From: Candidatus Lustribacter sp.
GTDB taxonomy: Bacteria > Vulcanimicrobiota > Vulcanimicrobiia > Vulcanimicrobiales > Vulcanimicrobiaceae
Reading direction: 5' to 3'
Assembly (NCBI GenBank): GCA_965277805.1
Contig: OZ255842.1
Span: 256,001 to 320,000 of the forward strand
Length of the DNA: 64,000 nt
Shown here: piece after piece, positions 11,529 through 56,451 of the stretch
Numbering within the stretch: position 1 is the first letter of the stretch
Layout of the letters: each line of letters starts with the position of its first letter
Notes under the pieces: generated by a model
Seen by the model: the letters and a program-made list of their open reading frames with translations, nothing else
What the model was told of the DNA's origin: nothing
The model's database searches: none
Translations under genes and position numbers: made by a program

Positions 11529-13148
11529 TCAATACCGTGAGAAATGCGTGCATTCTTTGGCCATTACCTCAATGAGCGCGGGGCGGCCGGCAGCGGTTAC
11601 GTCGAGCGCTTCGCGCGCTGCCGGGGTGAAATCTTCAACGTCCTCGATTCGCTTCGACCAAGCGCCGAGTCCGGCCGCAACCATCCGGTAGTCGCCGCCG
11701 AGGTCGATCGCGTGATACTGTTCGATCGCGCGTTCCATGCCGAGCCGCTCGCCCGCCATGATGCCGTTGTTGAACACGATCGTGATGATCCCGATGCGAT
11801 TGCGCACCGCCGTCTCAATGTCCATTCCCACCATTCCGATCGAAGCGTCGCCCATGACGTTGACGCACACGGCATCCGGATTGGCCAGCTTGGCGCCCAT
11901 GATCATGCCGAGCCCCGCGCCGAGTGAGGTCGATTTGCCCCAGCCGAGATAATCGCGCGGCGCGCGGCTCTGCCAGAACGGAATCATCTGCTCGCGCGGG
12001 CTGCCGGCTTCGTGCGTCACGATCGTGCGCCGGTCTTGGAGCAGCGCGTAGAGATCGCGAATCACGCGGTACTGGTTGATCGGCTTTTCGCCCGACGTGA
12101 GCTCGGGAGCCCATTCCGCTTCCCAAGCCTTTCGAACTGCGCCTACTTCGGCAGCCGCGTCGCGGCCGGCGGCGTGTTTGCGAGCCACGATCTCATCGGC
12201 GAGGGCTTGCAGCGCGAGTTTCGCATCGGCGAGAATCGCGGCGTCGGTGAACCAATCCTTGTTGATGTCGAGCGGATCGTTCGTCAGGTGCACGATCGTT
12301 TTTCCGGCCGGGATCTTCGGCGCCCAGTTGACGCGCGAGAGGCTCGTGCCCGCGCCGAAGACGCAGTCGGCGTCTTTCAGAAACGCGAAGGCCATTTTGG
12401 GCGCCGAGTTCACCATCGCGCCGAGCGCGAGCGGATGATCTTCGGGAAAGCTGCTCTTGCCCGGATTCGTCGTCAGCACCGGCGCTTGCAGCAGTTCCGC
12501 GACGCGCACGAGTTCGGCCGTGGCGCCGGCAAAGAGAATGCCTTGGCCGGCCTGGATCACCGGACGCTTCGCCGCGAGCAGCGCGTCGGCTGCCAACCGG
12601 ATTGCCTCGGGATCGGGCGCCGAGCGCAGCGAGCGCGTCGTGCGATAGGCGTACTCACCGCATTCGGCTTCGGTGATGTCGCCGATCGCCTCAATGAGCA
12701 CCGGGCCCGTCGCACCGCTGTGCAGGTTGTGAAACGCGCGGCGCATCAGCTCCCACACGCGCGCCGGATCGTCGAGTTCGCAACCCCACTTCGTGATGTG
12801 CGCGAAGTTGTCGACGGCGCTAAACGTCGGCGGCGTGTGACTGCGCCCCATCGGTGCCGGACCGGGCAGCACGAGCAGCGGAATGCCGTCGCTAAATGAC
12901 TGCGAGACACCGGAGAACGAATTCTCGATCCCGGGTCCGCCCTGCGGCGCGAAGACGCCGATCTGTTTGCCGTTCGTCGAGCGGCTGATGCCGTCGGCGA
13001 TCCCCGCTCCAACCCGCTCTTGACGGCAGATGATCGGGCGCAGCCCGGCTTCCACGCAGCGGTCGATCAGCAGGTTCCTGGGATAGCAGATCAGATGCTC
13101 GACGCCTTCGTCTTTGAGCACTCGTGCGATCGCGTCAGCTACTTTGAT
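11529..13148 (-). CDS. Thiamine-diphosphate-dependent enzyme (acetolactate synthase large subunit-like)
   Basis: CRQERVGAGIADGISR (catalytic Glu), GPGIENS and GDASIGM...FNNG ThDP motif; probable start ATC 13148 (first canonical start is GTG 13121). Confidence 0.88.
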   Translation of the reverse strand: MKVADAIARVLKDEGVEHLICYPRNLLIDRCVEAGLRPIICRQERVGAGIADGISRSTNGKQIGVFAPQGGPGIENSFSGVSQSFSDGIPLLVLPGPAPMGRSHTPPTFSAVDNFAHITKWGCELDDPARVWELMRRAFHNLHSGATGPVLIEAIGDITEAECGEYAYRTTRSLRSAPDPEAIRLAADALLAAKRPVIQAGQGILFAGATAELVRVAELLQAPVLTTNPGKSSFPEDHPLALGAMVNSAPKMAFAFLKDADCVFGAGTSLSRVNWAPKIPAGKTIVHLTNDPLDINKDWFTDAAILADAKLALQALADEIVARKHAAGRDAAAEVGAVRKAWEAEWAPELTSGEKPINQYRVIRDLYALLQDRRTIVTHEAGSPREQMIPFWQSRAPRDYLGWGKSTSLGAGLGMIMGAKLANPDAVCVNVMGDASIGMVGMDIETAVRNRIGIITIVFNNGIMAGERLGMERAIEQYHAIDLGGDYRMVAAGLGAWSKRIEDVEDFTPAAREALDVTAAGRPALIEVMAKECTHFSRY

Positions 13149-13245
13149 TTCGCATCCTCCCGGCTTGGTAATTTCTTTGCGACCTTGCGGCTACGCCCCA
13201 GGAGTTCCCTTTGCTGAAATGAAGGCTCGCGACGCCGGAGGACGC

Positions 13246-14409
13246 ATGGAAAACGGACATCTCACCCGCCAAGAACTCTTGGCGCAGCTCACCCAAACCG
13301 CAGCGGGCACGCCGATGGGCACCCTGTTGCGCTCGTTCTGGCAGCCGGTCGCGACGGCTGATAGCGTTGCCCCCGGAAAAGCGCGCGCACTGCGCGTGCT
13401 GAGCGAGGATCTCACCCTTTATCGCGGTGAGACCGGAACGCCGTACTTGATCGGTGCGCGCTGCGCGCACCGATGCACGGTGCTCCACACCGGTTGGGTG
13501 CAAGACGATCAAGTGCGCTGCATGTACCACGGCTGGCGCTACGGCGGAACCGGTCAATGCACGGAGATGCCGGCTGAGAAGAACGTTAGTCCCGAGCTGG
13601 TGAAAATCGCCGGCTACCCGGTGCACGAATACGGCGGTCTGCTGTTCGCCTATTTGGGCGAGGGCCCGGCGCCGGAGTTCGATCTGCCGCGCAAGCCCGG
13701 GCTCGAAGAACAGGGACGGTTGCGCACGGTGCGCTATCAGGAGTGGGACTACAACTTCTTTCAAGGCACGGAAAACTCGCTCGACGCGACGCACGTGAGC
13801 TACGTGCACGTGTGGGGCAAAGTCAGCCGTTTCGGCGATGAGATCACCACCGCGGTGCCGGAGTTGTCGTACGAAGAAACGAGTGCGGGCATTCGTCAAA
13901 CGGCGTATCGTTCGGCGAACAACATTCGCATCAGCGATTGGACTTTTCCGAACAACAACCACATCGTTTCGCCGGGACCGCGCAAAGGCGATCCGTGGAC
14001 CGATAGCGTGACCTGGCACGTGGCGATCGATGACGAGCATACGATGCGCTTCGCCGTGCAGACCATGGCGTCGACGGATCCCGAAACCGATGCGCGCTTT
14101 TTGGCCGATCGGCAAGACGGTTACAATCCGGCCGACCACTATCACGAACTCTTCGACGAGCATCGCATTCCCGAGGGCATCGGCACCGGACAAGTGATCG
14201 CGACCCAGGACTACGTCGCGCTGCGCGGTCAGGGCCGGATCGTCGATCGCTCGCAAGAGCGCTTGGGACAATCCGACGCCGGCGTCGCGTTGCTGCGCCG
14301 AATTTTTCTGCGCGAACTCGAAGCGATTCGCGAAGGCCGTGCGACCAAGGCGTGGGCGCGACTCGACGAACCGGCGCACTTGCCGATTCAGGTTCCCGAA
14401 CCCGTTTAG
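13246..14409 (+). CDS. Rieske non-heme iron oxygenase alpha subunit (phthalate 4,5-dioxygenase-like)
   Basis: GTPMGTLLRSFWQPV, CAHRC...CMYHG Rieske motif, ENSLDATHVSYVH, QDYVALRGQG and ERLGQSDAG; GGAGG before ATG 13246. Confidence 0.9.
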   Translation: MENGHLTRQELLAQLTQTAAGTPMGTLLRSFWQPVATADSVAPGKARALRVLSEDLTLYRGETGTPYLIGARCAHRCTVLHTGWVQDDQVRCMYHGWRYGGTGQCTEMPAEKNVSPELVKIAGYPVHEYGGLLFAYLGEGPAPEFDLPRKPGLEEQGRLRTVRYQEWDYNFFQGTENSLDATHVSYVHVWGKVSRFGDEITTAVPELSYEETSAGIRQTAYRSANNIRISDWTFPNNNHIVSPGPRKGDPWTDSVTWHVAIDDEHTMRFAVQTMASTDPETDARFLADRQDGYNPADHYHELFDEHRIPEGIGTGQVIATQDYVALRGQGRIVDRSQERLGQSDAGVALLRRIFLRELEAIREGRATKAWARLDEPAHLPIQVPEPV

Positions 14410-21526: not shown

Positions 21527-22522
21527 ATGGCCAACGTAGCTGAGAGCCTGGCGGAAACTGCAGTCGACCGGTCGGAGTGGACGATCACCTCGACGTGCCG
21601 GCGGTGCCGGGCGGCGTGGAATCTCGCGCCCAGCGTCATCGGGACCGCCAAGGACGGCAAGGCGTTTTTCCGGCGGCAGCCCGAGACGGAAGAGGAACTC
21701 AGCGAAGCGTGGCGCGCCTTGGTGGCGTGTCCGACCGGTTCGATCAAAGCGCCGCACGGGCTGCCGCTGCCGAACGACGTGTTTCCGCAACTGCTGGCCG
21801 AGAATCTTTGGCGCCTCGGATACAACGACAACAGCAGTGCCGGCGCGCATCCGTTTTTCATTCGCGCGAAGAGCGGCCTGAACTTCATGGTCGACGGTCC
21901 GCGCTTCGTGCCGAAGCTGGTGAAGTTCATCGAAGAGCAGGGCGGGCTCGATCACGTGCTGTTGACGCACCGCGACGACGTCGGCTCGGCCGCGAAATAT
22001 GCCGAACATTTCGGCGCGCGATTGTGGATCCACGAGAATGACCGTGCGGCGGCGCCCGAAGCCACCGACATCCTGACCGGCTACGAGATCACCGAACCGG
22101 TACCGGGCTGCACCGTCATTCCGATTCCCGGCCACACGATCGGCAGCGTGGCGTTTCTCATCGATGAGAAACTGTTTCCCGGCGATTCGCTCGGCTGGGA
22201 ACTCGCGCAAAGCCAGCTGTGGACGAATCCGATTTTTTGCTGGGATGACTGGCCGATGCAGGCCCGCGCGCTGCGGCGGCTGCAAGCCTTCCGCTTCGAT
22301 TACGTGTGCTCCGGCCACAACTACAGCATTGGATTCCCGGCCGACCGCATGAAGGCGGAGTTGGACAAGGCGCTCGATTTCTTCGATACGCTCACGTGGA
22401 CGCCGCCGACGCATCTGCCGACCGGCGAGGCGATTCCTGCGGCGCGCATTCAAGAACGCGATCGCCGCGTCGCGGAAGTTCGCGCCGACTTTTTCGCGAC
22501 GCTCGAGCGCGAACAGGCTTGA
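21527..22522 (+). CDS. Ferredoxin-like domain fused to a metallo-beta-lactamase-fold hydrolase
   Basis: N-terminal CRRC...CPTGSI; THRDDV, GHTIGS, GDSL and GH motifs; GGAGG before ATG 21527. Confidence 0.85.
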   Translation: MANVAESLAETAVDRSEWTITSTCRRCRAAWNLAPSVIGTAKDGKAFFRRQPETEEELSEAWRALVACPTGSIKAPHGLPLPNDVFPQLLAENLWRLGYNDNSSAGAHPFFIRAKSGLNFMVDGPRFVPKLVKFIEEQGGLDHVLLTHRDDVGSAAKYAEHFGARLWIHENDRAAAPEATDILTGYEITEPVPGCTVIPIPGHTIGSVAFLIDEKLFPGDSLGWELAQSQLWTNPIFCWDDWPMQARALRRLQAFRFDYVCSGHNYSIGFPADRMKAELDKALDFFDTLTWTPPTHLPTGEAIPAARIQERDRRVAEVRADFFATLEREQA

Positions 22523-23469
22523 TGCACGTTTCGCGGCGTCACGCGCTGGCGGCCCTCGCTGCTGCCGGCAGCGTGCCGTATTTGGGGCGGCCGGCTGCGG
22601 CCGATGGGCCGGCGATTCGCGTCGGCATGATTCCCATCGAGTCGGCCTGCGGCGCCTTTTATGCGAAGGAAAACGGGTTCTTTCAAAACGCCGGCGTGAA
22701 CGTCGAGATCGAGCTCAACCCATCGACGCCGGCGATTGCGTCGGCCGTCGTTGCCGGTACGTACGATATCGCATTCAGCGGCATTTCGACGCTGGCAGCG
22801 GCGCATGCGCGCGGGCTGCCGTTCGTCCTCATCGCGCCGTCGGGCATCATCGCGCCCGGTACGGTCTCGGGTGGGATAACGGTCGCGCCGCAATCGCCGA
22901 TCCGTACGGCTACGGACCTCAACGGCAAGACGTTCGCGGCTTCGGGTCTCAACACGCAAGCGGAGTACTCGCCGCGCGCGTGGATCGACAAGCATGGCGG
23001 CGATTCGACGACGTGCAAGTTCATCGAGATGCCGTTTCCGCAGATCGCCGACGCGATCGCGGCCGGCCGCGTCGACGCCGGCTATTTGGTCGAGCCCTTT
23101 CTCACCGTGGCGAGCAAACGCGGCGTCGTGCGCACCATCGCCAGCGGCGACGACGCGATCGGAACGACCTTCCTCGCCAGCGGCTGGTTTGCGCTCGCCG
23201 CATGGGCGAAGGCGCATCCCGACGCCGTGGCGGCGTTCGCAAGCGCGGTTGGTCAGGCGGGGCACTGGGCCAACGCGAATCCGGATAAAGTCGTACCGAT
23301 CATCGCGGCGCACCTCAAGACCGATCCGGCGGTGACGGCCGCGGTTCCACGCACGCTCTACACGGATCGTCTGATCGCCGCGCAGGTTCAGCCGTGGATC
23401 GACGTCACCGCGAAGTACGCGAAATTCCCGTCCTTTGCCGCCGCCGACCTGATGTACCGCCGGTCATGA
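22522..23469 (+). CDS. ABC substrate-binding protein, NMT1/SsuA type (TAT-like leader)
   Basis: SRRHAL leader; GFFQNAGV, DLNGKTFA, AWIDKHGGD and GRVDAG motifs; TGATG coupling to the upstream gene. Confidence 0.88.
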   Translation: MHVSRRHALAALAAAGSVPYLGRPAAADGPAIRVGMIPIESACGAFYAKENGFFQNAGVNVEIELNPSTPAIASAVVAGTYDIAFSGISTLAAAHARGLPFVLIAPSGIIAPGTVSGGITVAPQSPIRTATDLNGKTFAASGLNTQAEYSPRAWIDKHGGDSTTCKFIEMPFPQIADAIAAGRVDAGYLVEPFLTVASKRGVVRTIASGDDAIGTTFLASGWFALAAWAKAHPDAVAAFASAVGQAGHWANANPDKVVPIIAAHLKTDPAVTAAVPRTLYTDRLIAAQVQPWIDVTAKYAKFPSFAAADLMYRRS

Positions 23470-24638
23470 ACGTGCGCATCGTCGCCGCAGCGGCGCTTGC
23501 GCTCGGCGTGCTCGGGCACGCTACGAGGCTCGGCGCGGCCGACGTGGTGCCGGTCGAGTTCAACATGATCCTCTCGACAACCGGCGCCGCCGCGGTCGCC
23601 GGCGTTCCCGTCAGCCAAGGCGTGCGGGTTCTCGAGCAGATGGTGAATGCCGCCGGCGGCGTCAACGGGCGCCCGGTGAAGTTCAACATCCTCGACGATC
23701 AGTCGAGTCCGCAGATCGCCGTGCAACTCGCCAACGACCTCATCGCAAAGAAGGTACCGGCGATCCTCGGCCCGTTGTCGACCGCCTCGTGCGGCGCGGT
23801 CGCGACGCTGGTGGAAAAGAGCGGCCCGCTGATGTACTGCGTCAGCCCGTTCATCAAGCCGGCGATCGGCGGCTACGTGTACGCCGGCGGACCGGCCGAC
23901 ATCGACGGCGCGGCCGTCGTGCTGCGCTACTTCCGCGAACGCGGCATGACGCGCTTCGCGATGCTCAACTCGACCGATGCCAGCGGCCAGGCGCTGGATA
24001 ACGCCTTCGTCGAGGCCTTCGCGTTGCCGGAAAACAAAGGGATCACGCTCGTCGCGCACCAGCACTTCGCGCCGAGCGCAACGAGCACGTCGGCCCAAAT
24101 CGCGGACATCAAGGCGGCCAACCCCCAAGTCTTGATCAGCTGGATGATCGGCGCGCCGTTCGCGACGGTTTTGCGCGGCGCGCACGACGGCGGACTCGAC
24201 GTCCCGATCGTGACCAACGGCGCCAACGGATCGGCGGCCTTCATGACGCAAGTCGCGTCGTTCTTGCCGAAGGAGGTCGACTTCGCGTCCTATCCCGCTT
24301 CGCTCGCGAGCGCCGCGAGCAAAGGCATCGCCGCCGCTCAAGCCGCGCAAACGAAAGCCTTCGAAGCCGCGCACGTCAAACAAGAAGGCAACGCGATGGG
24401 CGCCTGGGATCTCGCGCTGATCATGGTCGATGCGATGCGCCACCTGCCCGCCAACGCGACGGCCGACGATCTGCGGGCCTACATCAACAAGCTGCAAGGC
24501 TTTGCCGGTACCAACGCGATCTACAACTTCCGAACTTACCCGCAGCGCGGCAGCGGACGCGACGGGAACATCATGGCGCGTTACGATCCCGCGACCAACG
24601 CATTCATCGCGATCAGCAAACCGGGCGGCGGCAAATGA
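23466..24638 (+). CDS. ABC substrate-binding protein, LivJ type
   Basis: Signal peptide; VNAAGGVNGRPVKFNILDDQSSP motif; ATGA overlap. Confidence 0.88.
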   Translation: MNVRIVAAAALALGVLGHATRLGAADVVPVEFNMILSTTGAAAVAGVPVSQGVRVLEQMVNAAGGVNGRPVKFNILDDQSSPQIAVQLANDLIAKKVPAILGPLSTASCGAVATLVEKSGPLMYCVSPFIKPAIGGYVYAGGPADIDGAAVVLRYFRERGMTRFAMLNSTDASGQALDNAFVEAFALPENKGITLVAHQHFAPSATSTSAQIADIKAANPQVLISWMIGAPFATVLRGAHDGGLDVPIVTNGANGSAAFMTQVASFLPKEVDFASYPASLASAASKGIAAAQAAQTKAFEAAHVKQEGNAMGAWDLALIMVDAMRHLPANATADDLRAYINKLQGFAGTNAIYNFRTYPQRGSGRDGNIMARYDPATNAFIAISKPGGGK

Positions 24639-25858
24639 CGCAGACGTCAACGATGGTGCCGGTGCAAGGCGGTTACGTACCGCGTTTCTCGCTCGCCGAA
24701 CGCGACCGGCGCTGGAAACGCGTGCGCGAACTGATGGCAGCCGATAACATCGATTGCATTTTCGTGCCGCCGAACACCGGGCACTGGGACACGTTTCAAG
24801 CCAGCGGACGATACTTAACCACGCTCGGCGGTAACAACGCGCAAGTCGCGACGATCTTCCCGCACACCGGTGACGTCACGGCGATCTCGAGCCCCGACAT
24901 CGCGCCGGCGATTTGGCACGCGCGTCAGGACTGGCTCCAGGACATCCGCTCGGCGGGCAGCGGCGGCGGCTGGGGTTACACCGACCACGTCATCGCGCGC
25001 ATTAAAGAACTCGGCCTCGAACGGGGACGCATCGGCATCGTCGGCCTCGAAGGCAATACGCGCTACCCCGAGGGCGTCTTCTCGCACGGCATGTACGAAA
25101 AACTGCGCGCCGCCTTACCCGGCGCGCAATTCGTCAACGGCAACTTCGTTCTCGAACGCGCGCGCTTCGTCAAGAGCGCGGAAGAAATCGCCATCATGGA
25201 GCAGGGAATCGCGCTGACAGAAGGCGCGCTCGACGTCCTGCGCGCCGAGGCGAAGCCGGGCGTGCCGGAGTGCGTCGTCTACATGCGTCTGCTCGCGAGC
25301 ATGGTCGAACGCGGTGCCGAGCTGCCCAGCATGATTCTCTGGTCCGCCGCGTGGCCGCAGTCGCCGTCGAACTACTACATGCCGACGCAGCGCCCGCTCG
25401 CGCAGGGCGACATGATCTCGATCGAGCTGGAAGCGCGCGTTGCCGGCTACAATGGCCAGGTCACGCAGGTCGCCTTCATCGGGGAGCCGCCGCGCGAGTA
25501 TCAGGAGATGTTCGAGCTGCAGCAGCGCGCGGTCGCCCGCTGTTACGAACTGCTGCATCCTGGTTCGATCATGGGCGACTTCGTCGAAGCGATGAAAGAC
25601 TTCGAAAATGCGGACTACACCGTTCGCCTGATCATGCACTGCCGCGGCCTCGGTGACGACTCGCCGATCTGCATCGGCGAATTCCGCGACGAGATGATGC
25701 GCACGTGGCCGATCGAGGTGGGCGCGACCTTCATCGTCAAGCCGGTGATCTTTGCCCGCGAAGGGTTCCGCCGGCTCTACTGGGGCGACACCGTCGTTGC
25801 AACGGAGACCGGTGCGCGCCGTCTCGGCTCGCGCAAACCGGAAATCATGCGTCTATGA
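24635..25858 (+). CDS. M24 peptidase / creatinase-fold hydrolase with atypical metal ligands
   Basis: FSLAERDRRW N-domain; RFVKSAEEI, ELEARVAGYNGQ, HCRGLG and WGDTV motifs. Confidence 0.85.
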   Translation: MTQTSTMVPVQGGYVPRFSLAERDRRWKRVRELMAADNIDCIFVPPNTGHWDTFQASGRYLTTLGGNNAQVATIFPHTGDVTAISSPDIAPAIWHARQDWLQDIRSAGSGGGWGYTDHVIARIKELGLERGRIGIVGLEGNTRYPEGVFSHGMYEKLRAALPGAQFVNGNFVLERARFVKSAEEIAIMEQGIALTEGALDVLRAEAKPGVPECVVYMRLLASMVERGAELPSMILWSAAWPQSPSNYYMPTQRPLAQGDMISIELEARVAGYNGQVTQVAFIGEPPREYQEMFELQQRAVARCYELLHPGSIMGDFVEAMKDFENADYTVRLIMHCRGLGDDSPICIGEFRDEMMRTWPIEVGATFIVKPVIFAREGFRRLYWGDTVVATETGARRLGSRKPEIMRL

Positions 25859-27069
25859 AACGTTCCATCAGGAGGCTGCCCTTCGTGAAAGTTCTGATCA
25901 GCGCGATGCTTACGCTGGTGCTCGCCGTTTCTGCCGATGGTCCGGGCGGCGCGCAGACGGCAACCGGCGCGCCGTATACGATCGATGCGATCCTCGAGCT
26001 CTCCGGCTCGAACGCGTTTACGGGCGAAATCTATGCGACGTCGCTGAAGATCTACGAGACGTACGTCAACGCGCACGGCGGCATCAACGGCCGGCCCGTG
26101 CATTTCAACCTGCGCGACGACGCGACCAATCCGCAGACGGCCGTGCAACTCGCGTCCGATACGCTCGCGAAGCATCCGGTGGTGTTCTTCGGCGGCGGCA
26201 ACACCGGGTCGTGCGCGGCGATCGCGCCGATGGTGAAAGACGGACCGGTCGACTATTGCATCTCGCCCGGATTCTCGCCGGACAAGGGAAGCTACGCGTT
26301 CGCGACGTCGCCGTCGTTGAAATCGATCGTGTCGGCGATCCTCGCGTACTGCCGCAGCCATGGATTGAAACGGCTGGCGCTGATTTCGGCGATCGACGCC
26401 ACCGGCAAGGCGTCGGAACAAGTGCTGACCGAGTTGCTCGACCTTCCGGCCAACCACGATCTGATGCTGACCACGAACCAGCACTTCAATCCGGCCGATC
26501 TCAGCATCGCCGCCCAAATCACGCAAGTGGCGGCTGCGAAGGCCGACATCGTGCTGTGCTTTGCGGGCGGAACGCCCTTCGGAACCGTGCTGCGCAGCCT
26601 CAACGACGGCGGCGTGCACCTGCCGGTCCTCACGTCGTCGGCGAACATCAACCGCGTCCAGCTCGATCAGTACAAGAGCTTTCTCCCGCCCCAGCTGATC
26701 TTCAACGGACCGATCTTCGAGATGGCGGATCAAGTCGGCGACCGCGGGCTGCGTGATGCCGTGAACGCCCTGTATTCCGCATACAAAGCGGCCGGCGCGG
26801 AGCTGAGCCCGCAAAGCGGCTTCGCCTGGGATCCGGCAGCGCTGGTCGTTTCGGGCCTGCGCAAGCTCGGGCCGTCGGCGACACCGCAGCAACTGCGCGA
26901 CTACCTGCTCGGCCTGCGCAAATATCCCGGCGTGAACGGCTCCTACGACTTCTCGATCGGCGACCAGCACGGGCTCGGGGCCGACTCGCTGGTGTTCGTT
27001 TCGTGGGATCCGAACACGCGGAACTTCTCCCTCGTCAGCGGGCCCGGCGGCTTGCCGCTGCGCCGTTAA
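25855..27069 (+). CDS. ABC substrate-binding protein, LivJ type
   Basis: VNAHGGINGRPVHFNLRDDATNP motif; start ATG 25855, or GTG 25885 behind AGGAGG. Confidence 0.88.
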   Translation: MKRSIRRLPFVKVLISAMLTLVLAVSADGPGGAQTATGAPYTIDAILELSGSNAFTGEIYATSLKIYETYVNAHGGINGRPVHFNLRDDATNPQTAVQLASDTLAKHPVVFFGGGNTGSCAAIAPMVKDGPVDYCISPGFSPDKGSYAFATSPSLKSIVSAILAYCRSHGLKRLALISAIDATGKASEQVLTELLDLPANHDLMLTTNQHFNPADLSIAAQITQVAAAKADIVLCFAGGTPFGTVLRSLNDGGVHLPVLTSSANINRVQLDQYKSFLPPQLIFNGPIFEMADQVGDRGLRDAVNALYSAYKAAGAELSPQSGFAWDPAALVVSGLRKLGPSATPQQLRDYLLGLRKYPGVNGSYDFSIGDQHGLGADSLVFVSWDPNTRNFSLVSGPGGLPLRR

Positions 27070-27087
27070 AAACGATAGGATACCAGC

Positions 27088-27732
27088 ATGAACGCAAAGC
27101 CCAAGATCACGACGATCGAAATCGAGGACTCGCTGGACAAGCTCGACGACTGGGATTTCTTCGCGGAGAAGGTTGTCGGCAAGTTCTCGGGGTTCAAAGC
27201 TGCGTCGGGCAATATTCTCGGCATTCGGCGCCGCATCATCGATCGCGATTCGGTGTACGACGAGAAGAAGGGCCCGCACCCGCACACCTTCGAGCTCTCG
27301 CCCACCGGCATCGAGACCATCAGCTTCAAGCCGATGAACTTCCATGTGACGCACGCCGGCACGCCGCATCGCGTCCCGCACAGTTTCGGTTACTGGCACA
27401 TCAACGATCTCGACGAAGTATATCTCGCGATCCCGGCGCCGGAAGGTGAAGAGCGCGGCCACTTCGTCGTCGTCATGCAGAAGCCGGCCGGCAAAGAAGG
27501 CGAGAGCTTCGCCTGGTACTGCGAAGAGTGCTTGACGCTGTTCGATGAGTACCGTTTCAATCACGGCGAGCTCGGTCTCACCGAATTTTGGCGCGCGGAA
27601 ATGCAAGCCGTCGCTCAGCACAACGCCAAGGACCGGACGTGTCCCGAATGCGGGCACGCGAATCCTCTCGCCTACACCTGGAATACGGTGAAAGATACGC
27701 CGGAGCTCACGGCTGCCCGTCACCACTGGTGA
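27088..27732 (+). CDS. 3-hydroxyanthranilate 3,4-dioxygenase-like cupin with rubredoxin-like Cys4 site (subunit A)
   Basis: WYCEEC...RTCPECG C-terminal motif; HINDLDE (H-x5-E) and PHRVPHS motifs. Confidence 0.65.
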   Translation: MNAKPKITTIEIEDSLDKLDDWDFFAEKVVGKFSGFKAASGNILGIRRRIIDRDSVYDEKKGPHPHTFELSPTGIETISFKPMNFHVTHAGTPHRVPHSFGYWHINDLDEVYLAIPAPEGEERGHFVVVMQKPAGKEGESFAWYCEECLTLFDEYRFNHGELGLTEFWRAEMQAVAQHNAKDRTCPECGHANPLAYTWNTVKDTPELTAARHHW

Positions 27733-28301
27733 GCACGTCGCCGCAACTGCCGGTCCTCGGGTTCGACTTCCCGCTCGACGCGCCCAATGGTTGGCATGAA
27801 GCGAACCGGTATCTGCTCTACGCCGGACACTTCGCGCTCGATGCGCCGCCGATCGCCCTGCAAGAATGGCTCGGCTCGGGTAGCGAGACGGTGCCGGCGC
27901 GTCACCGGCAACTCAGCATGGTGCCGGCCGGTACGCCGCACCGGTTGACGCACTTGGCCGGGTTCTGGCGTGAGTCCGACGCCGACTTGATCGTGCTGCG
28001 CGCCGTGCTGCCGGAAGCGTTGTACATCGCGCTGTACGTTTCGTCGGGACCATCGCATCACTACGATCGGATCTGCTGGTACTGCAATAAATGCGGTACG
28101 AAACTCGCGCCGTGGACCTACAACGTCGAGCGCTTCGGCGCGCTGTCGTTCTGGGAGAAGCTACTCGAACCCGTGCGCGCCTTCAATGCGGACGCTGCGC
28201 AGCGGACGTGTCCCGCGTGCGGGGCCGTGCATCCGTTAGCTTACGGCTTCGACGCGGCGGACGATACGAGCGAAGAGCGGGCCGCGCGGGCGAGCTGGTA
28301 A
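27729..28301 (+). CDS. 3-hydroxyanthranilate dioxygenase-like paralog (subunit B, degenerate Fe site)
   Basis: GTGA overlap with subunit A; AGTPHR and WYCNKC...RTCPACGAVHP motifs; H-x5-E absent. Confidence 0.6.
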   Translation: MSTSPQLPVLGFDFPLDAPNGWHEANRYLLYAGHFALDAPPIALQEWLGSGSETVPARHRQLSMVPAGTPHRLTHLAGFWRESDADLIVLRAVLPEALYIALYVSSGPSHHYDRICWYCNKCGTKLAPWTYNVERFGALSFWEKLLEPVRAFNADAAQRTCPACGAVHPLAYGFDAADDTSEERAARASW

Positions 28302-28305
28302 CGCG

Positions 28306-29112
28306 CTACTCGGCGCTCCAGCCGCCGTCGATCGGAATCGCGGTGCCGGTGATCGAGCGCGCGGCATCGCTGCACAGGTAGGCGCAGAGGGCGCCGACCT
28401 CGAGCGGATCGATGAACTTTCCCGTCGGCATCTTACTCAAGAACGCGCGCTTGAGCGCCTCTTCCTCGGAGATGCCGCCGCCGTACGACGTCGCCAGATC
28501 CTTGGCTTGTCCGGCGATCAGATCGGTGTAGACGGCGCCCGGACAAATCGCGTTCGCGGTCATCCCCGCTTCGGCGCCTTCGAGCGCGGTCGCTTTGGTG
28601 AACCCGACGACACCGTGCTTCGATGCGATGTAGGCGGATTTGAACGGCGAGGCGATTAGACCGTGGATGCTCGAGATGTTGACTACGCGCCCGTGCCCGC
28701 AGGCGACGAGATGCGGCCAGGCAGCCTTCGTGAGATGAAAGACCGAGTCGAGATCGACCGAACGCACGCGTTCCCAATCGGCATCGCCGAACTCGGCGAT
28801 CGGTGCGACGTACTGCACGCCCGCGTTGTTGACCACGTGATCGATCGCGCCGAAGTCGGCCGCGATGCGCGCAACGCCGGCGCGCACGTCATCCGGCTTC
28901 GTCACGTTGATCGCGTACCCGCGTGCGCGAACACCATACTCGGCAGCAAGTTTCGCGGCCGAGGCGGACGCCGTCGCTTCATCGAGATCGCAGATCGCGA
29001 CGTCGGATCCGGCGGCCGCGAGCGCCGTCGCGCAGGCGAAGCCGATGCCGCGCGCGGCGCCGGTAACGACGCTCACGCGACCGGCAAGGCTCAGGCTGGG
29101 AAGCGCGTTCAT
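28306..29112 (-). CDS. SDR, 3-hydroxybutyrate dehydrogenase-like
   Basis: TGAARGIG, NNAGVQYVAPIAEF and HGLIASPFKSAYIASKHG motifs; start ATG 29112. Confidence 0.88.
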   Translation of the reverse strand: MNALPSLSLAGRVSVVTGAARGIGFACATALAAAGSDVAICDLDEATASASAAKLAAEYGVRARGYAINVTKPDDVRAGVARIAADFGAIDHVVNNAGVQYVAPIAEFGDADWERVRSVDLDSVFHLTKAAWPHLVACGHGRVVNISSIHGLIASPFKSAYIASKHGVVGFTKATALEGAEAGMTANAICPGAVYTDLIAGQAKDLATSYGGGISEEEALKRAFLSKMPTGKFIDPLEVGALCAYLCSDAARSITGTAIPIDGGWSAE

Positions 29113-29459
29113 TTCTTGCTGTAGTAGCGCACTTCGAACGTAACGCAGCCTTCCGGGCTGCGCCAGGGTCCGTGACGCATGCCCGGCGGGCGGCACGCAT
29201 ATTCGCCCGCGCGGAACGTCTGCTTCAGCTCGAGATCTTCGAACGCGCCTTCGAGGATGTAGACCTCTTCCCAGAAGTCGTGCACTTGCACGCCGTTCGG
29301 CGTCGTGTCGCAGCCGGGCGGAAACGTGAGGATGCGGGTGGCGACGTTGGCGTCGGGGTCCTTTGCGAGGATGCGCTCCGTCATGCCGACGTCGGCGCCC
29401 GCGACCTTCGTCCACGGGATCGTCGTCACGGGGAAAAATTCGTGTTCGGGTTTGGCCAT
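29109..29459 (-). CDS. Small cupin (ChrR-like / cupin_7)
   Basis: MAKPEHEF, VHDFWEEVYILEG and YACRPPGMRHGPW motifs. Confidence 0.85.
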   Translation of the reverse strand: MAKPEHEFFPVTTIPWTKVAGADVGMTERILAKDPDANVATRILTFPPGCDTTPNGVQVHDFWEEVYILEGAFEDLELKQTFRAGEYACRPPGMRHGPWRSPEGCVTFEVRYYSKK

Positions 29460-29460
29460 G

Positions 29461-30102
29461 TCACTCCACTGAGTATTCGAACGTAAGGGGATGGGCGAGC
29501 GGACCGCCGCTGATGCGGGCCGCGAAGGTCTTGCCGAAGCGAAAGCCGTGCGTGAGCAGCGGCACGGTGCCGCAGAACAGCACGAAGTTTGCGTTGCCCT
29601 TGCGCTCGCGCAAACCGGCCAGCAGCGTCGCGAGCGGCACGATCTGCGCGAACGTGCCGCGCTGATAGGGTTCGCCGTCGATCGTGCTCTCGAGCGCGAT
29701 CGCATCGAGCGCGGCATCGGGCGCGCCGATGCGGACGACGTTCTTGCCGACGGGCTTGGGGCAAATGCTCTTGCTCTTCGAGATGCTCTCGCGTTCGACG
29801 TCGCGCGCGGTGTGATCGCTGCCGAGGCCGAGATAGAGATCGTTGCCGATGCCGATCAAGATCGGCTCGACTTCGCCGCACGTCTCTTTGGTCGGCACGC
29901 TGATGCTCGACGCTTGGGTGAGAATGCCCACCGGCATCTCGTACCACATCGGCACCTCGGGCGGGGCCGGAATGCCCTCGTGCGCGAGCTCGTCGATGTG
30001 TTTCTGCACCATAGCGCGATCGCGGCCGGTGTACCCCGCGATGATGAAAACCTCGGGCTCGCATCGAATCTGTCGCTGTTGTTCGTCGGTGAAAGTCAGC
30101 AC
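29461..30102 (-). CDS. DUF2848 family protein (FAH-like fold)
   Basis: IAGYTGRD...HIDELAHEGIPAP, TCGEVE, GSDHTAR..E and SK..CPKP motifs. Confidence 0.85.
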   Translation of the reverse strand: MLTFTDEQQRQIRCEPEVFIIAGYTGRDRAMVQKHIDELAHEGIPAPPEVPMWYEMPVGILTQASSISVPTKETCGEVEPILIGIGNDLYLGLGSDHTARDVERESISKSKSICPKPVGKNVVRIGAPDAALDAIALESTIDGEPYQRGTFAQIVPLATLLAGLRERKGNANFVLFCGTVPLLTHGFRFGKTFAARISGGPLAHPLTFEYSVE

Positions 30103-30161: not shown

Positions 30162-30235
30162 TACCGTATCGCTATTTGCACCCCTCCCCAACAGCGTACG
30201 AGTCGCCACCGGCCACCGGCCGGCCTCTTTTAGGT

Positions 30236-30922
30236 ATGGGGGCGGTGATTGTAACGGGCGGAGCAGGCGGACTCGGAACGGCGATCGTCGCCGACCTGCG
30301 GGCGAACGGCCGCACGGTGGTCTCCTTCGACCGCCAGGCTGCATCAAGTGCTTCCGCGTCGTTTCAACTCGACGTGGCCGATGAAGCCGCGGTCGGCGCG
30401 CGCGCAAACGAAGTTGCCGAACGCTACGGCGGCATCGACGGTCTCGTGTGCGCGGCCGGCACGGTGGCGGAACATCCGGTTGCCGAGATGCCGCTCGCGG
30501 CGTGGCGCAGCGTGATCGATGCATCGCTGACCGGCACCTTCGTCGCCACGCGCGCGGTACTGCCGGCGATGATCGCTGCCGCCCGCGGCAGCATCGTCGC
30601 CTTTTCTTCGGGCTACGCAACGACCGGTTACCGCAACGGCGCGAACTATGCCGCAGCCAAAGCGGGCGTCGAGGCGCTGATCAAATCCGTCGCGCTCGAA
30701 AACGCGCAGTACGGCATCCGCGCGAACAGCGTCGCGCCCGGCCCGATCGACACGCCGATGCTCACGCCCGAACGCGCGGCGTTCATCGGCCCGCGCATTC
30801 CGCTCGGCCGCGTGGGCACGCCGGCCGACGTCGTCGGGATCGTCCGGTTCCTAATCGGCGATGAGGGCGCGTACATTACGGGACAAACCATCGGGGTCAA
30901 CGGGGGCTTGATCATGCAATGA
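30236..30922 (+). CDS. Short-chain dehydrogenase/reductase (FabG-like)
   Basis: TGGAGGLG, YAAAK, NSVAPGPIDT and YITGQ motifs. Confidence 0.9.
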   Translation: MGAVIVTGGAGGLGTAIVADLRANGRTVVSFDRQAASSASASFQLDVADEAAVGARANEVAERYGGIDGLVCAAGTVAEHPVAEMPLAAWRSVIDASLTGTFVATRAVLPAMIAAARGSIVAFSSGYATTGYRNGANYAAAKAGVEALIKSVALENAQYGIRANSVAPGPIDTPMLTPERAAFIGPRIPLGRVGTPADVVGIVRFLIGDEGAYITGQTIGVNGGLIMQ

Positions 30923-32103
30923 GTACTCGCGCAACGCAGGTGCCGGCTTGGGCACCGAAGATCGATCCGTCACGCTGGGTCGACAACCGTGTCTACACCG
31001 ATCCGCACGTCTACGAGCGCGAGACCGAGCGCATCTTCATGCAAACGTGGCTGTTTGCGGGCCACGAAAGCGAAGTGCGCAACGCCGGCGACTACGTGAC
31101 GCTGAGCTTGCTCGAGCAGCCGTTGATCCTCGTGCGCGGCAGCGACAACGTGGTGCGCGCGTTCTACAATACGTGCCGCCATCGCGGTTCGCGCGTGCTG
31201 CTCGATGATTGCGGTCATGCCGCTGCCTTCCGGTGTCCCTATCACTTCTGGTCCTACGACCTCAGCGGCAACCTCATCGGCGTGCCCGGTGAAGAAGCGT
31301 ACGACGGCAGCGGCTTCGTCAAAGAAGAGAACCCGCTCGTCGGCGTGCGCTGCGAAGTGGCGCTCGGCCTCGTGTTCGTGTGCTTCAACCAGCAGGCGCC
31401 GCCGTTGCGCGACTATCTCGGACCGAAGGTGATCGAGACGCTCTCGACGCCGCTCGCCAACGCGGATTTCGAAGTCGTGAAGTACTACGGCTACGAGATG
31501 CCGATCAACTGGAAAGTGTTTGCCGAGAATGCGCGCGACGGTTATCACGTGCCGTTCGTGCACCCGTTCTTCCGCAAAGCGAGCCCGCCCGGGCCGTATT
31601 ATCTCTTCGAGGGCGGCCACGCCGTGCAAACGCTCGGCATGGACCCCACCGGCATCGAACCCGAGCTGTGGGTGCGTTTGCAAGAGCACACGTTGCCCGG
31701 CGTCGAGACTGGCGACGGCTACATCGTCACGCTGTTTCCCGATGCGACGATCACACTGCGTTCGAACGTGATCTCGATCGATTCGCAGCGTGCGCTTGGG
31801 CCGAAAAAGGTGCGCATGGAGAGCCGCGTGCTCGGTCTGCGCGGCGATTCCGAGGCGGTTCGCGAAGTGCGCGCGCTCGGTCACGCAACGTGGTTCCTCA
31901 ACCCGGTCGAACTCGAGGACGGGCCGATCTTCGTCGGTCAGCAAGAAGGCGTGGCTGCGCAAGGCGTTCGCTACAGCGTGATCGCGCGCGGCGCCGACGC
32001 CACGACCGGCACGCGCGGCGACGACAACCGCTTGCGCCAGTGGTGGACGGCCTGGCGGCGGTTCATGGGCGTCGAGCTGAACTCGCTGGAAGGCGAATTG
32101 TGA
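30919..32103 (+). CDS. Aromatic ring-hydroxylating Rieske oxygenase alpha subunit
   Basis: YTDP..YERE...IF, CRHRG...CPYH Rieske motif, NWKVFAENARDGYHVPFVH and ED..IF..QQ.G motifs. Confidence 0.92.
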   Translation: MSTRATQVPAWAPKIDPSRWVDNRVYTDPHVYERETERIFMQTWLFAGHESEVRNAGDYVTLSLLEQPLILVRGSDNVVRAFYNTCRHRGSRVLLDDCGHAAAFRCPYHFWSYDLSGNLIGVPGEEAYDGSGFVKEENPLVGVRCEVALGLVFVCFNQQAPPLRDYLGPKVIETLSTPLANADFEVVKYYGYEMPINWKVFAENARDGYHVPFVHPFFRKASPPGPYYLFEGGHAVQTLGMDPTGIEPELWVRLQEHTLPGVETGDGYIVTLFPDATITLRSNVISIDSQRALGPKKVRMESRVLGLRGDSEAVREVRALGHATWFLNPVELEDGPIFVGQQEGVAAQGVRYSVIARGADATTGTRGDDNRLRQWWTAWRRFMGVELNSLEGEL

Positions 32104-52631: not shown

Positions 52632-54392
52632 TCAGTTGCCTCCTCCGCGGCGCTCGGCGCGCAGCTTCGCCGTGGCAGCGTCGTCGACGTCGTTCGTCTT
52701 CGCATCCAACACTACGCCGTAGACGGTGAGGGCATCGTCGCGCGAGATGTACTCCTCGATGACGTCCATGCGCACGAGCGCGGGATCGCGGTCGAGCGCG
52801 TTGCCCCAGCCGCCGCCGCCGGCGGTCATGATCGTCACGCTGCTGCCGGGCGCGAGCAGTTTGCGGAACGGATCTTCGCGGTGGAAATCGGCGTCGCCGG
52901 CCGCTTTGATGTAGGCCTCGCCGACCTTACCGGAGCCGCCGCCGTGAATGCCCCACGGCGGAAATTGCGTGCGGCCCTGTTGGCTCGACGACCAGCGGCC
53001 TTCGGCTAAACTCTCGATCGTGGTCGTGATGCCGAGCCCGCCGCGGAACGCACCGGCGCCGCCTGAGCCCTCGCGCAGCGAACGTTCGCGCACGATCACC
53101 GGCGTCTTCAGCTCGATCGTTTCGACCGGCGCGTTGCGCACGTCGCCTTGACACACCGAGACCGATGCCGATTCGCCGTCTTCCCACGGCCGCGCGCCCC
53201 AGCCGCCGCCTTCGATCGTCTGCAGCACGAAGTTACGGTTCTTCGCCGCATCGCGGCCGAAGAACGCGAGCGCGCCGCCGAGCGTGCCCATCGTTGCGGC
53301 CGGAATGCGATCGGGCATCGCGTCGGCGAGCGACGTGAGGATCGTGTCGACAACCGTCGGCAGCATGCGGCTCCACGACGACATCGGCGCCGGGAACACT
53401 GCCATCATTAGGTTGCCTTCTTGAATCTCAACCTTCAGCGCGCGGAACGAGCCTTCGTTCACCGGTTCGAGCGCGCCGGTGAGGCCCTTGTAGGCGATGT
53501 AGGCGCCGGCCAGCGTGCGCCCGTTGATGGCGCCGCGCGTCTGCATCGAGCCTTTGGTGAAGTCGATCGTGAGATCGCTGCCCTTCACGACGACGTCGAC
53601 GACGATCGGCACGCGCTTGCCGGTCTCCACGCCGTCGTCGTCGAGGAACGATTCGGCATGGTAGGTGCCGTCGGGGATCTGCTCGACGATCAAGCGGCAC
53701 TTGCGTTCGGCATCGTCGAAGATGCGTTCGATCGCGATGCCGATCGTCTCGGCGCCGTAGCGGCTGTAGAGTTCCTCGAGCCGGCGTTCGGCCAGCGTGC
53801 ACGCGGCCATCTGCGAGCGCAAGTCGCCCATCGACGATTCCGGAAAGCGGATGTTGTCGGAGATCATCCGCAGCATTTTCTCGTCGGGCTTGCCGGCTTC
53901 GTAGATCTTGATCTGATCGAACTGCAGGCCTTCTTGCCAGGGATCGATGATCGAGGTGCCGGCCCCGAAGCCGGTGCTGTTGCCCCCGACGTCGACCCAG
54001 TGCGCGCGCACGATCGTGAACGCCGTCAGCTTGTTCTCGAAGAAGAACGGCGTGAGGATGCAGACGTTGTTGAGATGCTGCCCGGCGACGCGCTGGTGGT
54101 TCGTGATGATTACATCGCCCGGCGCGAAACCATCGACGCCGTAGCGTTTCACGCAATCCTTGATCACGACGCCGAGATCGGCGACGAAGTGCGATACCCC
54201 GCCGATGTTCTGCGCGAGCAAGCGCCCTTCGACGTCGAGCACGGCGCAGCAGTAGTCGCGGACTTCGTAGATCATCATGTTGTACGAGGTGCGCTGGAGG
54301 TCGACCGACATCTCGTCGGCGATCGCCGGCAGCGCGCTGCGCAGGACTTCGAGGGTGACCGGGTCGAGCCGGGTCTTTTCGGTGACGGTCAT
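52632..54392 (-). CDS. Hydantoinase B / oxoprolinase family subunit
   Basis: DPVTLEV, E.RDY, PGDVIITN, HLNN, AHWVDVGG, SGGAGAFRGG and GGGGWG motifs. Confidence 0.93.
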   Translation of the reverse strand: MTVTEKTRLDPVTLEVLRSALPAIADEMSVDLQRTSYNMMIYEVRDYCCAVLDVEGRLLAQNIGGVSHFVADLGVVIKDCVKRYGVDGFAPGDVIITNHQRVAGQHLNNVCILTPFFFENKLTAFTIVRAHWVDVGGNSTGFGAGTSIIDPWQEGLQFDQIKIYEAGKPDEKMLRMISDNIRFPESSMGDLRSQMAACTLAERRLEELYSRYGAETIGIAIERIFDDAERKCRLIVEQIPDGTYHAESFLDDDGVETGKRVPIVVDVVVKGSDLTIDFTKGSMQTRGAINGRTLAGAYIAYKGLTGALEPVNEGSFRALKVEIQEGNLMMAVFPAPMSSWSRMLPTVVDTILTSLADAMPDRIPAATMGTLGGALAFFGRDAAKNRNFVLQTIEGGGWGARPWEDGESASVSVCQGDVRNAPVETIELKTPVIVRERSLREGSGGAGAFRGGLGITTTIESLAEGRWSSSQQGRTQFPPWGIHGGGSGKVGEAYIKAAGDADFHREDPFRKLLAPGSSVTIMTAGGGGWGNALDRDPALVRMDVIEEYISRDDALTVYGVVLDAKTNDVDDAATAKLRAERRGGGN

Positions 54393-56443: not shown

Positions 56444-56451
56444 AGAATCTC

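Follow-up and report, generated by a model that had tools for sequence, protein, structure and literature searches.

Two overlapping paralogous genes distantly related to 3-hydroxyanthranilate dioxygenase and their association with Rieske-type ferredoxins

A 64,000-nucleotide stretch of the genome of Candidatus Lustribacter sp. (contig OZ255842.1, positions 256,001 to 320,000; the whole of this stretch is called the window here) carries on its forward strand two overlapping genes, A and B, that encode paralogous proteins. From the comparisons described below, we conclude that A and B are real, very distant relatives of 3-hydroxyanthranilate dioxygenase (3-HAO) lying outside the curated family, and that together they represent a variant of 3-HAO-derived iron cupin not previously described in open-access papers or on bioRxiv. 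Relatives of the pair often lie next to a small Rieske [2Fe-2S] ferredoxin gene, and we weigh whether A and B might be the terminal component of an electron-fed oxygenase. The two genes and the motifs on which the argument turns are as follows.

27088..27732, plus strand: gene A, an open reading frame (ORF) of 214 residues; presumed catalytic subunit, a 3-HAO-like cupin with a four-cysteine (Cys4) site
27364..27384, plus strand: PHRVPHS of A, residues 93-99; a segment resembling cupin motif 2
27394..27417, plus strand: WHINDLDE of A, residues 103-110; a beta-hairpin with an H-x5-E pattern, containing the invariant Trp103, His104, Asn106 and Glu110
27520..27531, plus strand: Cys145-x-x-Cys148 of A; first half of the Cys4 (rubredoxin-like) site, aligning with WYCxxC of 3-HAO
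27640..27651, plus strand: Cys185-x-x-Cys188 of A; second half of the Cys4 site, aligning with CxxCG of 3-HAO
27729..28301, plus strand: gene B, 190 residues from a GTG start; a degenerate paralog with a Cys4 site, presumed non-catalytic subunit
27966..27989, plus strand: WRESDADL of B, residues 80-87; the hairpin without metal ligands, Arg81 replacing His and Leu87 replacing Glu
28083..28094, plus strand: Cys119-x-x-Cys122 of B; both cysteines present in 119 of 119 B sequences
28209..28220, plus strand: Cys161-x-x-Cys164 of B; Cys161 present in 118 and Cys164 in 117 of 119 B sequences

The TGA stop of gene A (27730-27732) overlaps the GTG start of gene B at 27729, the two together reading GTGA. 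A mechanical list of ORFs opens gene B at an upstream TTG, and we adopted the GTG start instead because most B homologues in our alignment (A2) are 188-192 residues long and begin at the same aligned position. By BLASTP the two translations are 32% identical across 144 residues (E 5e-25), as paralogs. Both contain AGTPHR and FW; the first cysteine motif is WYCEEC in A and WYCNKC in B, the RTCPxCGxxxPLAY-type motif reads RTCPECGHANPLAY in A and RTCPACGAVHPLAY in B, and the C-terminal motif is AARHHW in A and AARASW in B. The overlap and these common motifs had been listed in a first-pass annotation of this DNA, and all of them are present in the translations. The shared features are far beyond chance and are conserved across 211 distinct full-length A-type sequences and 119 B-type sequences, the set to which all conservation counts here refer.

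Neither A nor B reaches any Pfam threshold; the only weak, sub-threshold matches are to zinc-ribbon models, and neither protein matches PF06052 (3-HAO) or the Pfam cupin models. The sole relevant NCBIfam models are two for 3-HAO, NF009763 (A 25.7 bits and B 31 bits, against a cut-off of 220) and TIGR03037 (A 19.9 bits and B 22.9 bits, against a cut-off of 145.95), and these matches cover only the C-terminal 60-80 residues of A and B, which is the Cys4 region. When we searched PDB sequences with phmmer, all 11 of the 11 matches to A were 3-HAO chains (E 0.045-0.46), as were 11 of the 15 matches to B (best E 0.006). For a more sensitive comparison by hhalign, the reference was a profile made from an alignment of ten canonical 3-HAO sequences, from the source genome and others. 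Against this profile, A residues 79-195 align with 3-HAO 62-172 (probability 97.8, E 9e-13), and B residues 37-172 align with 3-HAO 63-173 (probability 98.2, E 6e-14).

The predicted folds lead to the same family. AlphaFold2 models of A and B have mean predicted local distance difference test (pLDDT) values of 84 and 91.6, and the top ~18 rows of a Foldseek search of the PDB are all 3-HAO for each model, with best E values of 3.8e-5 for A and 7.5e-4 for B and modest TM-scores (0.38-0.50). A VIA-align search, which is independent of Foldseek, places the 3-HAO chain 5v26_A first for both proteins (A, Z 8.3 over 142 residues with a root-mean-square deviation of 4.3 Å; B, Z 9.7 over 139 residues at 3.2 Å) and human 3-HAO next. 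Only 3-HAO entries exceed Z 5.5; the best chain that is not 3-HAO reaches Z 4.5 for A and Z 5.4 for B, and other cupins (8qfl, 1lr5, 8ch4, 3i7d) appear in the list for B at Z ~4 only. The relation to 3-HAO that the first-pass annotation had recognized in the sequence, Cys4 site included, is thus borne out by profile and by fold.

Residues of 3-HAO that we take to bind the substrate, Arg99 and Glu110 (positions checked on a 174-residue 3-HAO sequence), have no counterpart in either protein in the profile alignments, the register of which is uncertain in that stretch: in A, Arg99 falls in a gap and Glu110 falls on Met130, and in B both fall on non-equivalent residues. A canonical 3-HAO gene (PF06052, 174.8 bits) sits elsewhere in the source genome, at G000:C1:2245853-2246299, and A and B are therefore not the housekeeping 3-HAO. 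The source genome also encodes a second, shorter 3-HAO-like cupin of 176 residues (76.7 bits; G000:C1:466615-466953, L085:6517-7044), flanked by a RidA/L-PSP gene and a Peripla_BP_6 gene.

Conservation divides the two proteins sharply. Arg47, Gly91, His94, Trp103, His104, Asn106 and Glu110 are invariant in all 211 A sequences, and His98 is kept in 191, with Asn, Phe or Tyr in the remainder. The Cys4 site of A is almost as strict, Cys145-x-x-Cys148 being present in 210 of 211 sequences and Cys185-x-x-Cys188 in 211 of 211. Based on this invariance and on strand geometry, A has a plausible 2-His-1-carboxylate iron site, for which His94, His104 and Glu110 would be the ligands. At the corresponding positions of the 119 B sequences, the residue aligned with His94 is most often His (65 sequences), with Tyr (30) and Phe (19) the main replacements; position 81, which corresponds to His104 of A, is Arg in 90 and His in only 10; and position 87, which corresponds to Glu110 of A, is never Glu. 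Other residues of B are kept, including Asp86 and His168 (119 of 119), Trp22 (118 of 119), Glu46 (115 of 119) and the four cysteines (117-119 of 119). Judged by these counts, B has lost the triad yet remains under strong constraint. The division into a catalytic subunit and a degenerate one that has lost H-x5-E, proposed from a single pair of sequences in the first-pass annotation, is supported by the pattern across the family.

The order of the motifs in A differs from that of 3-HAO. In canonical 3-HAO, His51, Glu57 and His95, which we take to be the iron ligands, are arranged as His51-x5-Glu57 followed ~40 residues later by His95 (positions again from the 174-residue sequence). In A this order is reversed, as had been noticed previously: PHRVPHS lies directly before WHINDLDE, so that the hairpin bearing His104 and Glu110 comes 6-10 residues past the motif-2 histidines His94 and His98. 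The segment AGTPH suits cupin motif 2, and WHxNDxDE looks like motif 1 of the 3-HAO type, again in the opposite of the usual cupin order. In the profile alignment of B, PAGTPHRLTH lies on LLPPHVRHS of 3-HAO, and the hairpin after the motif-2 histidine appears as an insertion of ~19 residues. The hairpin region reads GFWRESDADLIVLRA in B and GYWHINDLDEVYLAI in A; the profile alignment of A picks another register around the hairpin, so that the detail is uncertain there.

Taken in isolation, the A hairpin finds its best local 3-HAO match at residues 50-62, the motif-1 hairpin, where His104 falls on His51 and Glu110 on Glu57 (E 0.34, not significant), and PHRVPHS finds its best match in PPHVRHS, residues 90-96 (E 0.13, not significant). 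These two matches suit the idea of permuted motifs and are suggestive at the level of sequence. The N-terminal 80-90 residues of A do not align with 3-HAO in sequence, and the structural alignments run end to end, with residues 4-194 of the A model and 5-170 of the B model each lying on residues 1-171 of the chain. The reversed order may reflect a circular permutation, or it may reflect relocation or insertion of the ligand hairpin, and we leave the two readings side by side. In the AlphaFold2 model of A, residues 103-106 and 110-115 form consecutive strands, and in a model of the A-B complex the odd-numbered residues 111, 113 and 115 face B, which would direct His104, Asn106 and Glu110 into the A barrel.

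Next, we asked how regularly A and B occur together. We surveyed one genome per species across 185,579 species with a pattern scan, in which 100 of 105 matched stretches were confirmed; the best 80 were kept, giving 65 loci that hold 83 distinct A genes after de-duplication for overlapping loci. A B gene lies within 3 kb of A for 70 of these 83 genes, mostly directly downstream and often overlapping. The other 13 have no B (at least 60 bits) within 3 kb, although two of the 13 have a divergent fusion of B with a ferredoxin. Among 61 related genomes, 5 carry A and all 5 of these carry B, while the remaining 56 have no match to A or to B.

The complex model points to the same partnership. It scored 0.78, as compared with 0.00 for the best of three controls; among reference pairs, 116 of 157 solved complexes reach 0.78, as against 2 of 215 mismatched pairs, a calibration that is only rough here because custom alignments were used. 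Agreement of contacts between runs was at least 92%, and the pLDDT of the partner was at least 88. The predicted interface is pseudo-symmetric, with residues 111-115 and 125-131 of A (the hairpin strand and the next strand) packing on residues 86-94 and 99-107 of B, and it also takes in both N-terminal arms together with Glu46 and Asp86 of B. The modeling suggests that A and B form a heterodimer, and the heteromer anticipated in the first-pass annotation gains support both from this model and from co-occurrence in genomes.

The family is small and nearly nameless. A collection of 5.8 billion proteins yielded 182 A homologues, of which the 120 listed are named only "hypothetical protein", and the listed homologues have no Pfam domain apart from one call in which A is fused to a binding protein. 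For B, 47 homologues were found. Two of these had been named automatically "rubredoxin" and "Zn-ribbon DUF1610", names that we set aside as reflecting the Cys4 motif only. A profile search of 1.84 billion cluster representatives (50% identity) returned 152 clusters at E <=1e-3, 100 at 1e-10 and 27 at 1e-30, counts that include fragments and both subunit types; ten homologue clusters that were looked up are "hypothetical protein" only, and in the ESM Atlas the homologue P0006 found only unnamed or zinc-ribbon clusters, with scores of 0.87 or less. No longer proteins containing A, that is, fused forms, were found, which is weak evidence, and a tblastn search of annotated plasmid records with the A proteins of the window and of Paraburkholderia gave no match. 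A search of open-access papers and bioRxiv for cupins or relatives of 3-HAO described alongside a Rieske ferredoxin, a reductase or a rubredoxin-like site turned up no account of the A-B family.

Carriers in the 65 loci are scattered across Eremiobacterota, Stellaceae and other Alphaproteobacteria, Burkholderiales, Chloroflexota, Binatia, Actinomycetota and one Paenibacillus. They include cultured bacteria, namely Paraburkholderia phenoliruptrix, Trinickia symbiotica, Streptomyces, Amycolatopsis, Methylocella and Paenibacillus thalictri. The family was absent from all 400 other Pseudomonadota genomes that were sampled. All 5 carriers among the 61 related genomes belong to the source genus (5 of its 8 genomes, the source genome included). 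Each of these peat or soil Eremiobacterota has 4-7 A-type and 3-5 B-type matches, and some metagenome-assembled genomes (MAGs) of the alphaproteobacterial Stellaceae carry several copies on one contig.

The genes around A and B across the family bear most directly on function. A small same-strand Rieske [2Fe-2S] ferredoxin gene lies near 40 of the 83 A genes, and in 35 of the 83 the order is A, B, ferredoxin, with the ferredoxin stop 877-975 bases past the stop of A. Of these 35 loci, 25 lack any Rieske-oxygenase-like ORF within ~8 kb and 27 lack one within 5 kb; in the former 25, the ferredoxin is therefore not explained by a neighboring Rieske oxygenase. In two cases B itself is joined to the ferredoxin, in a fused gene directly after A: L043:8649-9581 (plus strand), in an Actinomycetota MAG, and L058:8660-9601 (plus strand), in Amycolatopsis. 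The N terminus of each fusion is B-like (42.7 and 32.1 bits, respectively, to the B profile) and the C terminus is a Rieske domain (PF00355, 52.9 and 52.6 bits), and in both fusions the first cysteine motif of the B part has one residue between the cysteines and not two.

Fuller sets of electron carriers are seen in two operons. The operon of Paraburkholderia phenoliruptrix (L045), headed by a divergent TetR gene, encodes in order a TAXI-like protein, an MFS transporter, a porin, A, B, a Rieske ferredoxin, a Fer2 ferredoxin, an FAD-containing ferredoxin reductase, a porin and an MFS transporter. That of Streptomyces (L053) encodes an MFS transporter, A, B, a Rieske ferredoxin, a TAXI-like protein and a ferredoxin reductase. 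Neither operon encodes any other oxygenase or any enzyme able to process a ring-fission product. The L045 reductase scores 288 bits against AndAa (cut-off 650) and 273 bits against HcaD (cut-off 450), and the ferredoxin resembles HcaC and MocE, at ~39 bits (MocE 39.6), below the curated cut-offs. In all, 8 reductase ORFs occur in the 65 loci. A protein of TAXI/NMT1_3 fold is a conserved member of the A-B-ferredoxin operons and is encoded near 28 of the 83 A genes (for example L045:3802-4860 and L053:9581-10576, both on the plus strand); judged by eye it has no hydrophobic N-terminal signal, and it might act within the cytoplasm as part of the system and not in transport.

Two odd genes touch on this set. 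At L031:6565-7986 (minus strand), a 474-residue open frame, counted from stop to stop, has no Pfam match and matches the Cys4 part of the A and B profiles twice, both times weakly; it is followed by a Rieske ferredoxin gene and is divergent from an A gene, and it could be a relative with tandem Cys4 domains. The metagenomic A homologue P0119 (238 residues) ends in a tail, PLHPGAEAYYREHGY..., that matches the C terminus of the TAXI-like protein, probably reflecting a deletion, or else a chimeric call that runs the A and TAXI-like genes together.

At the window locus the neighbors are different. Upstream of A on the same strand lie three genes, which with A and B form a run having stop/start overlaps within it:

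23394..24638, plus strand: Peripla_BP_6 solute-binding protein (PF13458), heading the same-strand run; start codon uncertain
24635..25858, plus strand: M24 (creatinase/prolidase-fold) protein (PF00557, PF01321); its stop overlaps the start of the next gene
25855..27069, plus strand: Peripla_BP_6 solute-binding protein (PF13458), directly upstream of A with an 18-base gap

The first of the binding proteins faintly resembles the urea-binding UrtA (43 bits; the cut-off is 493), and the M24 protein matches DddP weakly (31.8 bits). The arrangement of a Peripla_BP_6 gene followed by A recurs in the close relatives L002 and L004, and a directed search showed that 34 of the 83 A genes have an M24 homologue within 3 kb. 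In a midpoint-rooted FastTree of the 83 A proteins, the copies linked to M24 and binding-protein genes, the one in the window included, form one large nested group, and the operons linked to ferredoxin and TAXI-like genes lie on deep branches.

The source genome has five A and four B paralogs, with M24 and Peripla_BP_6 genes near all four of its A-B loci, and it also has at least 10 small Rieske ferredoxin genes. At one paralogous locus (G000:C1:4017556-4018939; L084:6554-8303, minus strand), a Peripla_BP_6 gene is followed by B, a Rieske ferredoxin gene and A in that order, and the ferredoxin gene overlaps the neighbor on each side. Beside this locus are a divergent M24 gene and a MarR regulator gene.

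The rest of the window is crowded with binding proteins and catabolic genes. A convergent minus-strand group (28306-30102), separated from the stop of B by just 4 bases, encodes a short-chain dehydrogenase/reductase (SDR), a small Cupin_7 (ChrR-like) protein and a DUF2848 protein. Further downstream on the plus strand, an SDR gene (30176-30922) is followed by a gene for a Rieske oxygenase alpha subunit (30919-32103) that is HcaE/GbcA-like (149 and 139 bits, below the cut-offs), with no beta subunit or ferredoxin adjoining, and a second Rieske oxygenase-like gene lies at 13114-14409. The window is unusually rich in binding proteins, with eight of NMT1/THI5 type, one NMT1_3 and three Peripla_BP_6; no membrane component of an ATP-binding cassette (ABC) transporter was recognized among the window ORFs scanned. 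Four Amidohydro_2 genes, a second M24 gene (57513-58616), hydantoinase A and B genes (52635-56785), a carboxylesterase and an O-methyltransferase make up the catabolic content. A Fer4_13 single-cluster ferredoxin signature at 21590-21750 (plus strand), inside a long mechanical ORF and after a 3-hydroxyacyl-CoA dehydrogenase gene, is probably a small unannotated ferredoxin gene; the ~0.5 kb past it contains no recognizable family.

What might the pair do? A ring-cleaving dioxygenase draws all four electrons from its substrate, and such an enzyme therefore needs neither a ferredoxin nor a reductase. A dedicated reductase, a ferredoxin fused to B, a Cys4 site kept in both subunits and operons without ring-fission enzymes argue together for an enzyme that consumes external electrons. 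We put at about even the chance that A-B is the terminal oxygenase of a ferredoxin-dependent system, acting as a mono-oxygenase, hydroxylase or oxidative dealkylase with the FeCys4 sites as its relay. In such an enzyme, A and B would be the two subunits of a heteromeric non-heme-iron cupin of common stock with 3-HAO. A would be the catalytic subunit, its iron held by His94 at the motif-2 position and by His104 and Glu110 on the hairpin past motif 2, whereas B would have no iron site and would pack on A through the equivalent sheet, both subunits retaining the rubredoxin-like metal site. Electrons would pass from NADH to the FAD reductase, then to the Rieske ferredoxin, then to FeCys4 and finally to the catalytic iron, and the reaction would be mono-oxygenation (hydroxylation or oxidative dealkylation) of a small imported organic solute. 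For the clade that includes the window copy, the ferredoxin would be supplied from elsewhere in the genome, and support for this oxygenase is weaker for the window's own copy because its carriers would have to act in trans. There, the partners of A-B (the M24 hydrolase and two binding proteins) hint at a small substrate of amide-, guanidino- or amino-acid-like character.

Several observations weigh against an electron-fed oxygenase or temper the case for it. No same-strand Rieske ferredoxin is nearby for 43 of the 83 A genes; at the window locus no ferredoxin or ferredoxin reductase adjoins A-B, and none of the small Rieske ferredoxin genes of the genome is within the 64-kb window. The tree suggests that the ferredoxin-linked arrangement is the older one, a reading that depends on midpoint rooting without an outgroup. 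The complex model may partly reflect memory of, or likeness to, solved 3-HAO homodimers. The Cys4 site could be structural, zinc-binding or an iron store, and an iron-store role has reportedly been proposed for the rubredoxin-like site of 3-HAO. A dienelactone hydrolase gene lies near 12 of the 83 A genes, and some loci have alpha/beta-hydrolase or Amidohydro_2 genes, all of which would fit the processing of a ring-fission product. In open-access papers and bioRxiv we found no biochemically studied member of the family.

The hydrolase genes near some loci favor the proposal of the first-pass annotation that A-B is a ring-cleaving dioxygenase acting on an aminophenol-type substrate. In its present form this would be an extradiol-type enzyme like 3-HAO, working on an aminophenol- or catechol-like compound, with the ferredoxin serving only to re-reduce oxidized iron in the manner of XylT, which re-reduces the accidentally oxidized active-site iron of catechol 2,3-dioxygenase. 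Its sole detectable relatives are the ring-cleaving 3-HAO enzymes, A retains both the H-x5-E hairpin and the motif-2 histidine, and the hydrolases just mentioned are joined near many A genes by luciferase-like monooxygenase genes; the window, moreover, is an aromatic and amide catabolic island whose A-B locus has no ferredoxin. However, the 3-HAO residues Arg99 and Glu110 align with a gap and a methionine in A, a canonical 3-HAO is encoded elsewhere in the genome, and the L045 and L053 operons pair a dedicated NADH-ferredoxin reductase with one or two ferredoxins while lacking an enzyme for the ring-fission product. The B-ferredoxin fusions and the close-set order A, B, ferredoxin at 35 of the 83 A genes suggest a stoichiometric partner and not an occasional repair factor, and XylT-type repair ferredoxins are plant-type, unlike the Rieske-type ferredoxins here. 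The ring-cleavage proposal is thus doubtful, and we regard it as unlikely, though it is the main rival.

We consider it quite unlikely that A-B carries out neither oxygenation nor ring cleavage and is instead a binding protein or a cupin enzyme such as an isomerase, decarboxylase, lyase or N-O-type reductase, in which the Cys4 site would be a structural zinc ribbon or the ferredoxin would feed a reduction. Cupin activities are very diverse, the only sub-threshold Pfam matches are to zinc-ribbon families, and the window clade has an M24 hydrolase and not a ferredoxin beside A-B; the M24 and cupin folds both include dimethylsulfoniopropionate (DMSP) lyases, and DddP is what the window M24 protein weakly resembles. 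Against this, the invariant His, His and Glu of A have the pattern of a classical oxygen-activating iron site, and the redox partners are of the type that serves aromatic-ring oxygenases (an AndAa/HcaD-like reductase and an HcaC/MocE-like ferredoxin, albeit below cut-offs). That A and B do not work together at all, B being a small metalloprotein in its own right or a copy of A in decay, is highly improbable. The 13 A genes without a nearby B and the loss of the catalytic residues from B would fit independence, but two of those 13 have the B-ferredoxin fusion, B is strongly constrained (Asp86, His168, Cys119 and Cys122 in 119 of 119; Trp22 and Cys161 in 118; Cys164 in 117), B occurs in 0 of 56 genomes without A, its start overlaps the stop of A, and the complex model passes its controls.

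A ferredoxin-dependent A-B oxygenase, which we favor, can be set against the systems it most resembles. 3-HAO (NbaC/HAO; PF06052, TIGR03037; PDB 1yfu, 5v26, 1zvf) is the only detectable homologue of A-B and its best fold match. The bacterial and yeast forms of 3-HAO have a cupin barrel followed by a C-terminal WYCxxC...CxxCG Cys4 site, an arrangement predicted for A and B too, and A shares with 3-HAO the H-x5-E hairpin and the PH..HS segment. Bacterial 3-HAO is a dimer, and a dimer-like interface is predicted for A-B as well. Unlike 3-HAO, A and B score only 20-31 bits against family cut-offs of 146-220, their ~80 N-terminal residues have no sequence similarity to it, Arg99 and Glu110 are not kept, and the hairpin of A is past the motif-2 histidine and not ~40 residues ahead of it. 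In place of a 3-HAO homodimer, A-B would be a heteromer with a degenerate paralog and a strict Cys4 site in both subunits, and genetic linkage to Rieske ferredoxin and reductase genes sets it further apart.

In gene content, the operons of relatives of A-B resemble those of three-component Rieske oxygenases (HcaEFCD, AndAaAbAcAd), with a catalytic and a non-catalytic gene, a Rieske ferredoxin and an FAD/NADH reductase. Unlike those enzymes, neither A nor B matches the Rieske (PF00355) or Ring_hydroxyl_A (PF00848) models, the electron acceptor would be FeCys4 and the catalytic domain a cupin, and the A-B locus of the window has no electron carriers alongside. In 2-aminophenol 1,6-dioxygenase (AmnAB), which has the LigB fold, the catalytic subunit has a homologous partner devoid of iron ligands. 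Such a pairing of catalytic subunit and ligand-less paralog is the only feature in common with A-B, which has no match to the LigB fold (PF02900); AmnAB has no Cys4 site and no ferredoxin partner. Rieske ferredoxins are known to feed non-Rieske oxygenases, as T4moC does in toluene-4-monooxygenase and as in the rhizopine system MocDEF, and A-B would similarly take electrons from a Rieske-type ferredoxin into a terminal oxygenase with no Rieske cluster of its own. The oxygenases of those systems, though, are di-iron proteins (a four-helix bundle or a membrane desaturase-like protein), whereas A and B have a predicted 3-HAO-like cupin fold.

These comparisons lead us to suggest, tentatively and at a little under an even chance, that A-B is a new class of multicomponent oxygenase: a 3-HAO-derived cupin heterodimer in which the His/Glu hairpin has moved past motif 2 and an FeCys4 relay, fed by a Rieske ferredoxin and an NADH reductase, takes the role of the Rieske cluster. 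If this is true, A-B would be a new architecture for feeding electrons to a mononuclear iron oxygenase, with a cupin carrying FeCys4 instead of a Rieske domain, and it would supply a role for the rubredoxin-like site of the 3-HAO lineage, which has long been debated and is dispensable in 3-HAO itself. The family is rare but multiplied within some genomes, each copy with its own binding protein, which suggests a catabolic enzyme family for a class of soil organic compounds. The breakdown of those compounds currently has no assigned enzymes, and the cultured carriers make the question directly testable.

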